Below, piece by piece: positions 2,171-4,803 of a DNA stretch of 4,803 nucleotides (positions within the stretch are counted from its first letter, which is position 1; every line of letters begins with the position of its first letter). A program made the translations under genes and the position numbers. The DNA is from a virus (taxonomy: Duplodnaviria > Heunggongvirae > Uroviricota > Caudoviricetes). The stretch lies in IMG/VR virus record IMGVR_UViG_2713896785_000008; one strand, written 5' to 3'. The notes under the pieces are model-generated. The model was not told where the DNA came from. It ran no database searches and saw only the letters and a list, made by a program, of their open reading frames with translations.

Positions 2171-2378
2171 TTACCGAGTTGCTAATTTGCAACTCGCTTT
2201 TTCGTACTTACTGATAGTGATCTCGACCTTCCCTTCCGGGATAACCGGTCCCCACTCCACCAGNNNNNNNNNNNNNNNNNNNNNNNNNNNNNNNNNNNNN
2301 NNNNNNNNNNNNNNNNCCTTTGTTGGGGTGTCGCCAGTACGTGTTCACGCTGGGCGGAAAAGGCAGGATCAGCTTCAT
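2171..2378 (-). CDS. rusA: RusA-like Holliday junction resolvase, interrupted by a 53-N run
   Basis: ATG 2378-2376 overlaps the upstream TGA (ATGA coupling). N-terminal translation MKLILPFPPSVNTYWRHPNKG matches the RusA N-terminal motif (LPWPPSxNxYYRH). After the gap, ...VEWGPVIPEGKVEITISKYEKASCKLATR* matches the RusA C-terminal region (...PVTKGGRLELTITE...). Stop TAA 2173-2171. With 53 N the two parts are out of frame and the protein would be about 68 aa against about 120 for RusA, so the N-run probably under-represents the missing sequence. Confidence 0.55.
2175..2204 (+). terminator. Perfect 8-bp inverted repeat (CGAGTTGC-taattt-GCAACTCG) followed by CTTTTT on the plus strand; terminator-like hairpin or operator
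   Basis: Stem 2175-2182 / 2189-2196, loop 2183-2188, T-tract 2197-2202. The T-tract follows the stem only on the plus strand, where no gene is supported. It lies inside the 3' end of the rusA-like ORF, so function is unclear. Confidence 0.3.
2264..2316. other. Run of 53 N (assembly gap or masked bases) inside the rusA-like gene
   Basis: Directly visible; see the rusA-like feature for why its true length is probably larger. Confidence 0.95.
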
Positions 2379-2701
2379 ACTTTCAGGCCCCTCTCATGTA
2401 ACCAGTGGGTTGCACGCAGCCTTGCGTTTTCCTCACCGGCAAGCAGTGAGTGGATAATCCCGACCGCCTCGCTGTCGTCGTCCTTCACCGCGGTATGAAG
2501 CGTTATCCCCCGGGCCACGCCACGCTTTATCGTGATGACGCCTTTTTTCTCCAGTGCGCGAAGATGCTCTACCGCTGCATTCACTGAACGGTATCCCAGC
2601 ATGGTTGCCACCTCCTGATTGGTTGGCGGAAAGCCACGCTCTTTCTGATAAGAAATCAGCATATCCAGCACCTGCTGCTGGCATTGAGTTAATGTCGTCA
2701 T
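2375..2701 (-). CDS. LexA-like DNA-binding protein: LexA N-terminal winged-helix domain only, no S24 peptidase domain
   Basis: 108-aa ORF. MTTLTQCQQQVLDMLISYQKERGFPPTNQEVATMLGYRSVNAAVEHLRALEKKGVITIKRGVARGITL aligns from residue 1 with the LexA DNA-binding domain as I recall it ([68 protein letters not shown]), including the recognition helix RS-NAA-EHL-AL-KG. The remaining ~40 aa are unrelated and there is no Ala-Gly cleavage site or Ser/Lys dyad region. ATG overlaps the methyltransferase stop (ATGA at 2698-2701). Confidence 0.75.
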   Translation of the reverse strand: MTTLTQCQQQVLDMLISYQKERGFPPTNQEVATMLGYRSVNAAVEHLRALEKKGVITIKRGVARGITLHTAVKDDDSEAVGIIHSLLAGEENARLRATHWLHERGLKV

Positions 2702-3351
2702 GCCGCCATCTCCCTGACCAGTTTTTCCGCCTGCTGGCGAACCTGCGCCAGAAACGCCTCACCACATGCCTCAAGTTCATCGCGCCCAATGTAGCTGATT
2801 GCCGGTCCCTTCCAGGTCTTGTCAAAAACAGCAATAGCACCAGCGAAAAAAGCTCCTGTCGGTACCTGCTTCTCGTCTTTCGGGATAAACCAGACAGGCA
2901 GTTCAAAACCAATACGCCCGCGAATAAAAGCAATATGATCTGCATCTTCCGGCCACCACACTTCGCTGGTGGCAGCTTTGATCAGGAAAACATAGCGNCC
3001 GCCCTTATCACGCATGGCACTGGCATGNTTCATGATGTAACGCATGCCGGTGATGTATTGCCCCTCATGCTGACTGGCGCGGCTGTATGGAGGATTACCA
3101 AAGGCAGCACCTTTAAGCTCCGCAAGGCGTTCTGACCAGTCATGCGCCAGCGCGTTGTCTTCCGCCGTGTAATACGCGGCACATTTGGCGTTATCACCGT
3201 CAGTGAACAGATCCAGAACAAACGGACCAAACAGGGTGTTAATTCCCCAGAAAATGTTATCCGGCGTGCGCCACTGATCTCCCACTTCCTTCAGTTCATG
3301 GGCTGGTTTATTCCGCAGTTCCACCAGCGCCTGGCAATATTTATTACTCAT
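2698..3351 (-). CDS. Phage-type DNA N6-adenine methyltransferase (Dam-like), orphan
   Basis: 217-aa ORF with the NPPY motif IV (…AAFGNPPYSRAS…) typical of amino-methyltransferases. ATG 3351-3349 preceded by GGGGG, overlapping the upstream TAA (TAATG). Two ambiguous bases (2998, 3028) give X in the translation. No restriction endonuclease partner in the window. Confidence 0.8.
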   Translation of the reverse strand: MSNKYCQALVELRNKPAHELKEVGDQWRTPDNIFWGINTLFGPFVLDLFTDGDNAKCAAYYTAEDNALAHDWSERLAELKGAAFGNPPYSRASQHEGQYITGMRYIMXHASAMRDKGXRYVFLIKAATSEVWWPEDADHIAFIRGRIGFELPVWFIPKDEKQVPTGAFFAGAIAVFDKTWKGPAISYIGRDELEACGEAFLAQVRQQAEKLVREMAA

Positions 3352-3443
3352 TAAGCCCCCACGTAAAAAGCATCCGCAATGTCTCCGGAAGTACAGCCCG
3401 GATGGGCTTCAATGAATTTCTGAACGTCATTTAACAGACTCAT
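3351..3443 (-). CDS. Small ORF (30 aa, MSLLNDVQKFIEAHPGCTSGDIADAFYVGA) translationally coupled between the rep and methyltransferase genes
   Basis: ATG 3443-3441 lies 2 nt after the rep TGA (3448-3446) and is preceded by GGGGGTGA. Its TAA (3353-3351) overlaps the methyltransferase ATG (TAATG). Codon usage looks typical (CTG, GAC, CAG, GAA, CCG, GGC). Too short for the ORF track. Confidence 0.3.
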   Translation of the reverse strand: MSLLNDVQKFIEAHPGCTSGDIADAFYVGA

Positions 3444-3445
3444 GA

Positions 3446-4438
3446 TCACCCCCTGAATCCTGCCGGGATCTGGCTGTAGTCCACGTTGTCGTAACTGGCT
3501 TTGAAGTACGGGTCTTCACGTTTTTCTGTGTGCGTGCTGACGGACGGCGATAAGCGCAGGGAAAGCTCATCCCATTTTTCCCGCAACTTCGACGGGCTGA
3601 GCACGTTACGGCACCAGAACGGATCGCGGCTGACGCGGCTGTACATCTCGCAGATTTGTTTGTGAGTACGACCATCCTGCACACACATCAGGCGAATTTC
3701 GTTTGCCCATGCTGTCCAGTTCGGTTCTTTGGGACGAACCACCTCGCCGTCACATTCGGCGGCCTGCTCGTACAGGGCGATGATTTTTTTCCAGAGCCAC
3801 TGTGCGCAGGTCAAATCATCCTGCGTTCCCCACTGGCGCTTTTTAGGGCTGAATACAACCGCATCAGGATGGCGAGTTAAAAACTCCTGTTCAGCCGTTT
3901 GCGTGTCCGGTTGCGAAGCGTCCGGACGAGAAGAGGTTTTATTCTCTGTAGTAATCTCTGTTGTATTCTCTGTAAGATCATTGGGCCATTTTGACCCGAT
4001 GACAGCGTGTCGTTTTGAACCAATGGATCGTATCATTTTGCGCCCATCCATCAGGTCACTTTGACCCGATGGAGAAGTGCATTTTGACCTGATGGATTCG
4101 TTCACTTTGACCTCTTCTAAAAGCTCACTTTCATAGTTGATCGTGTAGAAGTTGGTCATGTCACGCTTCGATTTATTGAGTTGCTCGCGACGCAAAACCC
4201 CAAGTGATTTCAGGCTTGCAAATGTGCGTTTCAGAGTGGACTCTGACCAGAACGGAAACTGCTCCAGCCACTGTTCTGTCGTGTTATAAACCCAGCGAAT
4301 TCCGCCATGCTCAGTGCCTGAATTCGTTTCATTCAGCCAGTAATGAAGCTGCTGCAACACAATTGCCTCATTCAGACCAATACGGCATGCAAGATCACGA
4401 TTTATCACAATGGGCTGGGATGTCATTAACAGGCTCAT
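3446..4438 (-). CDS. Phage replication initiator (replisome-organizer type: N-terminal DNA-binding domain plus conserved phage C-terminal domain; lambda O-like role)
   Basis: 330-aa ORF. ATG 4438-4436 preceded by GAGG at a 6-nt spacer. N-terminal ...PIVINRDLACRIGLNEAIVLQQLHYWL... is the characteristic replisome-organizer N-terminal motif as I recall it. An iteron array and AT-rich tract lie within the gene, as in lambda O. Confidence 0.8.
   Translation of the reverse strand: MSLLMTSQPIVINRDLACRIGLNEAIVLQQLHYWLNETNSGTEHGGIRWVYNTTEQWLEQFPFWSESTLKRTFASLKSLGVLRREQLNKSKRDMTNFYTINYESELLEEVKVNESIRSKCTSPSGQSDLMDGRKMIRSIGSKRHAVIGSKWPNDLTENTTEITTENKTSSRPDASQPDTQTAEQEFLTRHPDAVVFSPKKRQWGTQDDLTCAQWLWKKIIALYEQAAECDGEVVRPKEPNWTAWANEIRLMCVQDGRTHKQICEMYSRVSRDPFWCRNVLSPSKLREKWDELSLRLSPSVSTHTEKREDPYFKASYDNVDYSQIPAGFRG
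3936..3985. other. AT-rich tract flanking the iterons (putative DNA unwinding element of the origin)
   Basis: About 70% A+T with three TCTCTGT copies, immediately downstream of the iterons in the direction of rep transcription, matching lambda ori layout (iterons then AT-rich region). Confidence 0.45.
3987..4114. repeat. Iteron array: six direct repeats at 23-24 bp spacing, consensus CAYTTTGACCYGATGGA (putative origin of replication)
   Basis: Copies at 3987-4003 (cattttgacccgatgac), 4011-4027 (cgttttgaaccaatgga), 4034-4050 (degenerate), 4057-4073 (cactttgacccgatgga), 4080-4096 (cattttgacctgatgga) and 4103-4114 (cactttgacctc, partial). They sit in the linker-coding part of the rep gene. Confidence 0.65.
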
Positions 4439-4447
4439 GACCGACCT

Positions 4448-4786
4448 CTATTTCCCTGAATTTACGACGAAACTGTTCGAGCGGACTGAAGCATTCATGT
4501 TCATAGCCTTCACGGAGGTAGATAACCCGTTGTGTTTCCGGCTCCCAACGAATGACTCTGACGGGCACTCCGTAGTGATCTTTGAACCAGCGGTTAACTT
4601 GTCGCAAAGGACTGTCTCCTTCTGCCGGTTGAAATCACCCACAGCCCACTCTGCAAAGCTGTGGGTTACAATTTCCCTGTCACCTGGTACATTCACTGCA
4701 TAGCAATACTCCACCTTCGCTTTTCCACCCGGTACAGGAAGCGCAATCAGTTGCGAGCGACGGTAGTGTGTTGTTAAACTGTTCAT
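4448..4786 (-). CDS. Hypothetical protein upstream of rep (112 aa as drawn; frame of the 3' half uncertain)
   Basis: ATG 4786-4784 preceded by GGAGA at a 9-nt spacer. TAG stop 4450-4448 overlaps the rep RBS. The N-terminal ~58 aa look coding. The C-terminal half is Ser-rich and is overlapped by a more protein-like alternative frame (TTG 4607 to TGA 4395); see findings. Confidence 0.4.
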
Positions 4787-4803
4787 GCGTTAGTTTCTCC
4801 ACA

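Follow-up and report, generated by a model that had tools for sequence, protein, structure and literature searches.

In lambdoid phages the replication origin lies, as the textbooks have it, inside the gene of the replication initiator. The question is whether the same holds for a stretch of viral DNA of 4803 bp (Caudoviricetes; IMG/VR record IMGVR_UViG_2713896785_000008), hereafter called the window. Every gene in its open reading frame (ORF) list lies on the minus strand, and one of them, here called rep (3446–4438, minus strand), encodes an O-like protein of 330 amino acids and carries a series of direct repeats in its middle. An earlier note on this DNA had regarded these repeats, together with an AT-rich tract that follows them, as an iteron-type origin built like that of lambda. 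We suggest, from sequence comparison and structure prediction, that the region 3938–4119 is very probably the vegetative replication origin of a lambdoid prophage, situated inside its own initiator gene. New with respect to the textbook lambdoid origin are the superfamily of the N-terminal domain, which is not covered by any model in Pfam, the absence of a loader gene, and a conserved array of 12-mers in place of a plain AT-rich tract.

The identification of rep as a replication initiator, as proposed before, holds. The protein matches phrog_391 (‘replication initiation O-like’) with residues 1–330 aligned to profile positions 1–298 of 298 (E 7e-102), and its C-terminal domain (coding region 3557–3901, minus strand) is homologous to that of lambda O according to BLASTP (amino acids 147–294, 33% identity over 148 amino acids, E 1e-26). 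Moreover, in lambdoid relatives the gene is located in the early-right operon after cro and cII-like genes. Searches of Pfam (E ≤ 10) and NCBIfam assigned no family to the protein and a PDB sequence search returned no match; the plasmid initiator families Rep_3 (PF01051) and RepA_N (PF06970) were likewise absent from the Pfam hits, the latter at E ≤ 10.

Phased repeats inside the initiator gene

Six repeats are centred at 4106, 4083, 4060, 4037, 4014, and 3990, with spacings of 23, 23, 23, 23, and 24 bp. They correspond to nucleotides 322–460 of the 993 nucleotides of the gene and are thus in mid-gene, between the N-terminal domain (amino acids 1–105) and the lambda-O-like C-terminal domain. 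A repeat search found five copies at 3987, 4011, 4034, 4057, and 4080 (spacing 24, 23, 23, 23) and an extra copy of the CACTTTGACC half at 4103, and Tandem Repeats Finder reported a 23-bp period at 4056–4113 as well as a 12-bp period at 3943–3974. The motif CAYTTTGACCYGATGGA has five matches with at most three mismatches where 0.04 are expected by chance, and none of 200 shuffles gave five. The six repeats at 23–24 bp described in the earlier note are therefore present far above chance, with the qualification that the copy at 4034 is degenerate and that at 4103 is a half copy.

On the gene strand the repeat units read TCCATCnGGTCAAAATG. Iteron 1 (4103–4119), nearest to the N-terminal domain, keeps only the GGTCAAAG half. 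Iterons 2 (4080–4096, gene strand TCCATCAGGTCAAAATG) and 3 (4057–4073, TCCATCGGGTCAAAGTG) are exact matches to the motif, iteron 4 (4034–4050, TGGATGGGCGCAAAATG) is the degenerate member of the repeat family, and iterons 5 (4011–4027, TCCATTGGTTCAAAACG) and 6 (3987–4003, GTCATCGGGTCAAAATG), the latter adjoining the 12-mers, were found by repeat search and motif match alike. A candidate seventh copy at 4126 has only CAYTTT in common with the others and was left uncounted. The repeats have partial dyad symmetry around an AAA or AAG centre, as complementarity extends to 34 of the 54 arm positions where chance would give 13.5. Eight of nine are complementary in iteron 3, which is part of a 27-bp near-palindrome at 4047–4073, and seven of nine in iteron 6. 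A function of this region as RNA or as a hairpin was considered and dropped, as single-strand folding of the origin gave only the hairpin of the palindrome (z = −2.1); an Rfam search of the window had no matches, and the three terminator-like sites around the origin are on the opposite strand and at about chance level.

The repeats are at the same time coding sequence. Residues 84–178, which are encoded by the repeats and the 12-mers, have AlphaFold2 confidence values (pLDDT) below 50 with folded domains predicted on either side, and the linker between the domains is thus predicted to be disordered. This supports the earlier proposal that the repeat DNA encodes the inter-domain linker. Because the encoded linker is predicted to be disordered, signals can sit in this DNA. 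A disordered linker of low complexity could, on the other hand, also have produced the repeats as a by-product, by slippage duplications and without any function of the DNA, and this explanation gains from the fact that half of the six copies have xIGSK or SIRSK as their in-frame translation and that the 12-mers code for a T/E-rich repeat in a fixed frame. However, copies 1–6 are translated as VKVNE, SIRSK, PSGQS, DGRKM, SIGSK, and VIGSK, that is, in three reading frames, two copies being in frames other than that of the rest, and the 23-bp period gives no peptide repeat; reading in three frames argues for DNA signals rather than for a peptide repeat. In addition, third codon positions are better conserved in the iterons than in the folded N-terminal domain (83, 76, and 59% vs. 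50, 52, and 42% identity to relatives which have 63–75% nucleotide identity in the N-terminal domain). Among the relatives described below repeats of entirely different sequence have the same period, the synonymous codons of the 12-mers are frozen, and in some Gram-positive phages the 12-mer units are found in other frames. The outcome that had been named as fatal to an origin, codon-level repeats of a linker without conserved phasing in relatives, is thus not what the comparison gave, and we give hardly any credence to a by-product of the linker.

The N-terminal domain and its iterons

We compared iteron similarity pairwise across 117 distinct origins. Pairs with the same N-terminal domain (>70%) and different C-terminal domains (<35%) have a mean iteron similarity of 0.55 (1027 pairs), and pairs in which both domains are the same one of 0.57 (369 pairs). 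The corresponding values are 0.18 for the same C-terminal and different N-terminal domains (17 pairs) and 0.26 for pairs that differ in both (3125 pairs). The repeat sequence therefore tracks the N-terminal domain and not the C-terminal domain, which lends support to the proposal that the repeat motif sets the replication specificity of the phage.

An exchange between two phages points in the same direction. The O-like gene of Shigella phage SfII is identical to the window in 472 of its last 482 nucleotides (98%, 10 mismatches), whereas beyond window position 3928, on the upstream side, its N-terminal domain (Pfam HTH_36) is unrelated and its repeats are different, with a 15-bp period. In the alignment the identity breaks at the module boundary 3928–3934, from which the two genes are near-identical up to the stop codon. 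The contrast between SfII and the window indicates that the N-terminal domain and the iterons move as one module with the break just past the 12-mers. We infer from these comparisons that the N-terminal domain binds the iterons. As to SfII itself, its 15-bp repeats stay in frame and encode SDPSK or SDASK, and it has no ACAGAGA 12-mers; SfII appears to carry a different origin design on the same C-terminal domain.

The presumed iteron reader, encoded by 4124–4438 on the minus strand, is predicted to be winged-helix-like. It aligns with 47–81% identity to phage proteins of Klebsiella, Erwinia, Pseudomonas, Staphylococcus, and Bacillus. Its AlphaFold model consists of helices and a beta-hairpin (pLDDT 56–76), and a Foldseek search of the model against the PDB returned winged-helix proteins throughout, all as weak matches (best E 0.08). 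At the top are 4pql (‘N-Terminal domain of DNA binding protein’) and 5kbj (‘Structure of Rep-DNA complex’) with E 0.08–0.14, both of which we take to be N-terminal domains of staphylococcal plasmid Rep proteins. A relationship to the N-terminal domain of lambda O was not detected, with no hit to PF04492 (Pfam, E ≤ 10) and an hhalign probability of 0.2%. The C-terminal domain is modelled as helical (pLDDT 60–82). A DnaD/DnaB_2 domain (PF07261) was not found by Pfam in the window protein; a Staphylococcus relative with the same N-terminal domain carries one at its C-terminus.

Relatives were found by tblastn with the N-terminal half in phages of Klebsiella, Providencia, Erwinia, Pseudomonas, Staphylococcus, Bacillus, Listeria, Lactobacillus, and others. 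Nine rep genes that were fetched have the same layout at the same place, namely repeats of 22–24 bp, frequently with GGTCAAAATG as their core, and behind them TACAGAGAnTAC units; Erwinia phage Stean is a relative of the GGGCAAATTGCCC type. In two Pseudomonas phages the iterons were missed by the repeat tool and are visible in a 23-nucleotide register and by autocorrelation. The comparison of iterons among homologous phages, which the earlier note had called for, was extended to 34 clusters of genes with the window-type N-terminal domain that are less than 92% identical to each other. Autocorrelation of the DNA upstream of the 12-mers gave a best lag of 23 in 29 of these clusters, of 22 in three, and of 24 in two. 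The phasing is thus conserved.

To go beyond close relatives (a protein search of viral contigs returned only proteins of 79–100% identity) the DNA of IMG/VR was scanned for two adjacent 12-mers (TACAGAGANTACNACAGAGA), which gave at least 120 matches. Among the viral matches listed, 119 of 120 are in one frame, and most are in the middle of an ORF of about 260–430 amino acids, a few of the ORFs being cut by contig ends. Half of these matches (60 of 120) have the window-type N-terminal domain at E < 1e-10; of the remaining 60, 52 fall into one cluster with a different N-terminal domain, next to a few contig-end fragments or singletons. The clusters with other N-terminal domains among the matches listed have unrelated repeats, for example TGGCGGAAAGCGCCA, TGCAGGAAACCTGCA, and GTGAAAATCAC, and a 23-bp period in 30 of 36 cases. 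Representatives of the scan are labelled in PHROGs as ‘replication initiation O-like’, ‘replication initiation protein’, or ‘DnaD-like helicase loader’.

A second scan with the same pattern, in bacteria with one genome per species, likewise gave at least 120 matches. Among the bacterial matches listed, 106 of 120 have their longest ORF in the T-E frame, the motif is found at median residue 161 of an ORF with a median length of 318 amino acids, and a lag of 21–24 bp is seen upstream in 94 of 118. By iterative profile search, 166 of 169 distinct upstream N-terminal regions among the matches listed join into one superfamily. Of the 240 motif-bearing ORFs listed, none has an N-terminal domain of the lambda O, SfII, or TP901-1 type and 35 have a lambda-O-type C-terminal domain.

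We define this superfamily by three elements that succeed one another within a single ORF: the N-terminal domain, phased repeats, and at least two 12-mers. The window, from which the definition started, fits it, as do relatives across phyla: the full architecture was found at individually checked loci in Pseudomonadota (alpha and gamma), Desulfobacterota, Bacillota, Cyanobacteriota, Chloroflexota, and Gracilibacteria. Matches in Chitinophaga, Prevotellaceae, and Alkalispirochaeta and one viral match are without the architecture; we consider them chance matches and have excluded them from the phylum breadth. A plasmid search with the N-terminal domain gave 90 records, mostly phage-sized ‘plasmids’, and is uninformative on autonomous replication. 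For one large superfamily of initiators a rule emerges, i.e., iterons that vary in sequence at about 23 bp, with a conserved 12-mer array behind them, which is usable for locating prophage origins across phyla, while the iterons sort the elements by type of replication specificity.

Would phased repeats that are paired with the N-terminal domain have to be an origin? They could also be operator-like sites at which the protein represses its own operon or controls copy number or incompatibility, with the true origin elsewhere. Plasmid iterons serve initiation and control alike (PMC4980987), and the co-variation with the N-terminal domain shows the pairing only and not the outcome of binding. Nevertheless, the repeats are always joined downstream to a conserved and locally unstable 12-mer tract, an arrangement that belongs to an origin rather than to an operator. 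Moreover, their position and layout copy ori-lambda, and a scan in and near the array found no promoter-like site. We therefore regard operator sites with an origin elsewhere as improbable. Even less probable, in our opinion, is that the repeats bind a different protein, for instance a regulator like the neighbouring LexA-like or CII-like ones, or serve a different process, for instance packaging or, as a centromere, partition. Phased repeats within genes occur at packaging sites and centromeres as well, and the window does encode other DNA-binding proteins. However, the array travels with the N-terminal domain of this gene across phyla and through differing neighbourhoods, whereas the neighbouring genes (Dam, LexA-like, PerC-like, Ren-like, helicases) vary.

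The 12-mer array

What follows the iterons in the direction of the gene (minus strand) is the AT-rich tract of the earlier note, and with 29% GC at 3938–3978 on the gene strand, compared to 50% for the whole gene, it is AT-rich indeed. It is, however, not merely AT-rich, as it contains three conserved tandem 12-mers at 3938–3973, which read ACAGAGAATACA, ACAGAGATTACT, and ACAGAGAATAAA on the gene strand, have a 12-bp period, and encode TENTTEITTENK. The consensus of the array is ACAGAGAnTACn, and the purine content of the tract is 66%. Calculated stability puts the 40-mer at 3938–3978 last in the gene (z = 2.9) and last but one in the whole window. In 9 of 10 Gram-negative genes compared, namely in that of the window and in those of eight relatives, the least stable 36-mer starts within 8 nucleotides of the array.

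The array is also the best-conserved nucleotide stretch of the gene in six of six comparisons (100, 93, 80, 80, 76, and 71%). The codon usage within it is biased. In 17 clusters that were taken from the protein search and not selected for the motif, the glutamate codons of the array are GAG in 43 and GAA in 0 cases vs. 117 and 104 in the rest of the genes (Fisher p = 4e-11), and the threonine codons are ACA or ACT in 77 and ACC or ACG in 0 cases vs. 89 and 131 in the rest (Fisher p = 2e-24), both p-values being calculated without regard to the relatedness of the sequences. The synonymous sites of the array are frozen across hosts with genes of 32 to 60% GC. In the phages mv4, BMBtpLA3, and fPfSau02 the units are at 11-nucleotide offsets and read R-D-Y or Q-R-I instead of T-E-x-T. 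The third unit, which was outside the search pattern, is conserved as well, its conservation over CAGAGA.TA among 52 diverse origins amounting to about 1 bit per position, while in the iteron region of the same origins the only common sequence is A-tracts about every 23 nucleotides. We conclude that the 12-mer array is, to judge by these patterns, constrained as DNA; the frozen synonymous sites are a clear example of a DNA signal that constrains a coding sequence.

More distant relatives of the N-terminal domain (about 31% identity), found in phages of Bacteroides, Flavobacterium, Vibrio, and Burkholderia, have CAGATA in place of CAGAGA in the array and palindromic repeats upstream of it, for example ATTCGCCGAATTCGGCGAAT.

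We are slightly inclined to regard the 12-mers as a sequence-specific opening or loading element. Since the array is conserved as DNA while iterons and C-terminal domains differ, we infer a conserved recogniser, either a region of the initiator or a host replication protein, which perhaps acts on single-stranded DNA. More tentatively, the ACAGAGAnTACn array, with the CAGATA variant in the distant subfamily, may be a sequence-specific core element of the origin that is conserved as DNA within phage and prophage initiator genes from at least six bacterial phyla. With the same reserve, it may be the counterpart of the 13-mers of oriC or of the DnaA-trios, so that the duplex would open there and a conserved partner would bind one strand. 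If this is true, the core element provides a signature of 20 nucleotides which locates the origins in thousands of prophages. A description of the array was not found in the open-access literature searched by topic and by motif sequence.

Tandem units next to initiator sites are known from other replicons. The 13-mers of oriC and those of plasmid RK2, which Rep binds as single strands, are recognized in a sequence- and strand-specific manner (PMC10602881, PMC4980987). The array resembles them in that its tandem units, two to five in number and each about one helical turn long, are beside the initiator sites; unlike them, it has another sequence, its units are inside a coding region, and this sequence is kept across phyla.

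Iterons and 12-mers are separated in the window by a junction (3974–3986, gene strand GCCCAATGATCTT) which contains a GATC site at 3976–3979. Further GATC sites in or beside the origin are at 4027–4030 and 4138–4141. The phage has its own Dam methylase gene (2698–3351), two genes downstream of rep, and several relatives also have a methylase beside rep. A control by GATC and Dam was rejected as a general feature: of 52 diverse origins no more than 9, most of them enterobacterial, have a GATC just upstream of the 12-mers, so that any methylation control would be specific to a lineage.

Proposed initiation and comparison with known systems

How might such an origin be opened? We suggest that dimers of the winged-helix-like N-terminal domain would bind the six partly palindromic iterons with the core GGTCA-AAA-TGACC. 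The spacing of about 23 bp, i.e., about 2.2 helical turns, could allow the bound proteins to wrap and strain the DNA, by analogy with the O-some of lambda. The strain would then open the adjoining three 12-mers, whose instability is computed, and finally the lambda-O-type C-terminal domain might bring in the helicase of the host. The C-terminal domain of lambda O binds P. In the window a lambda-O-type C-terminal domain would work without a P protein, as no helicase loader is encoded beside rep.

Several points weigh against the origin and the mechanism proposed here. A P-, DnaC-, or DnaB-like gene was not found after rep in the window, mEp460_4F5, SfII, or HannyBb. The label of initiator is derived from remote homology (PHROGs and the C-terminal domain of lambda O) and from gene position, and the AlphaFold model has a mean pLDDT of 55.6 with fold matches that are not significant (best E 0.08). 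With regard to the array, the relatedness of the sequences tempers the codon statistics, and the T-E-x-T frame is the one used in 119 of the 120 viral matches listed, so that the 12-mers may be under an additional constraint at the level of the peptide. In the AT-rich phages of Staphylococcus and Bacillus other parts of the gene are less stable than the array. The sequence of the array is still kept there, from which it follows that easy melting alone is insufficient. Finally, a topic and motif search of the open-access literature found nothing on this protein, this fragment, or close relatives.

The closest parallel to the putative origin is that of lambda, where iterons and an AT-rich tract sit midway along gene O (PMC7466680). 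Both origins lie in the middle of the initiator gene, in DNA that encodes a linker, and have dyad-symmetric iterons with an A-tract at the centre. The Stx phages 933W and P27 are counted with lambda in this comparison. The lambda iterons start at 39034, 39054, 39078, and 39101 and are spaced by 20, 24, and 23 bp compared to 23–24 bp in the window, the repeats begin at 0.39 of the length of lambda O and at 0.32 of that of rep, and the coding strand of the downstream AT-rich tract is 70% purine in lambda and 66% in the window. The part of lambda O that matches the C-terminal domain of the window protein is C-terminal to the origin-encoded linker. Moreover, in both cases N-terminal domain and iterons are exchanged as a module with a junction past the AT-rich tract, where the lambda record marks two recombination junctions. 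On the contrary, the N-terminal domains are unrelated by sequence, the six iterons of the window have another sequence, and no P gene follows. The architecture of ori-lambda claimed in the earlier note is thus reproduced in spacing, dyads, position, and purine-skewed tract, but neither in the N-terminal domain, which is not that of lambda O, nor in a P-like loader.

Compared with the conserved 12-mer array of the window, lambda has at the equivalent place a single degenerate in-frame unit, TCAGAGAAT, and the lambda tract may be a degenerate cousin of the array. Read as TCAGAGAATTCT, the single in-frame unit of lambda is just past the AT-rich tract (39157–39174), at a position equivalent to the boundary between the window and SfII.

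We know of no 12-mer array in pSK41, a plasmid of Gram-positive bacteria which is otherwise organized in a related manner. The N-terminal domain of its Rep protein is a winged helix whose four binding sites, the Rep boxes, are in the interior of the rep gene; the middle section of Rep, encoded by the origin, is a dispensable linker, and the C-terminal domain is host-specific (PMC5703833). Plasmid pPR9 is a natural chimera in which N-terminal domain and origin have been swapped for the pfam13730 type (PMC5703833), the family to which the N-terminal domain of SfII also belongs. The window protein differs from these RepA_N initiators in that it has no match to PF06970, in that its C-terminal domain is lambda-O-like and not DnaD-like, and in that it comes from a phage and not from a plasmid. 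The Rep protein of Lactococcus phage TP901-1 (ORF13, labelled ‘experimental’ in its record) has mid-gene repeats followed by an AT-rich stretch as in the window. It was nevertheless rejected as a characterized homologue, as the profile of the N-terminal domain gave no hit, the repeats are different, and the ACAGAGA 12-mers are absent.

The rep gene is widespread in E. coli. It has a 100% match in prophages of E. coli chromosomes and is present in full length in 1057 of 5426 complete E. coli genomes. In the listed E. coli records (PGAP) it is named ‘hypothetical protein’ in 11 of 12 and ‘phage replication protein O’ in one. Our reading would assign a function to a gene which is found in about a fifth of the complete genomes of this species and is mostly labelled as hypothetical. 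The part of the window at 3400–4803 has 98% identity with Escherichia phage mEp460_4F5, a near-identical phage with the same gene order as far as gene Q. Downstream of rep (2208–3446), the window has a 30-amino-acid ORF and the genes of the Dam methylase, of a LexA-like DNA-binding protein, and of RusA, and further on that of a KilA-N protein. In HannyBb, rep is immediately followed by a Ren-like gene.

Upstream of rep, two minus-strand ORFs in the region 4395–4786 overlap by 160 nucleotides in different frames, and both have family support. The ORF of 112 amino acids (4448–4786) matches phrog_1170, and its first 63 amino acids match phrog_20047 too; the call may be an over-extension. The other, a DUF4222 ORF of 70 amino acids (4395–4607), overlaps the start of rep by 44 nucleotides. 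Runs of N at 1326–1375 and 2264–2316 and single Ns at 2998 and 3028 break the KilA-N, RusA-like, and Dam genes and leave the origin region untouched.

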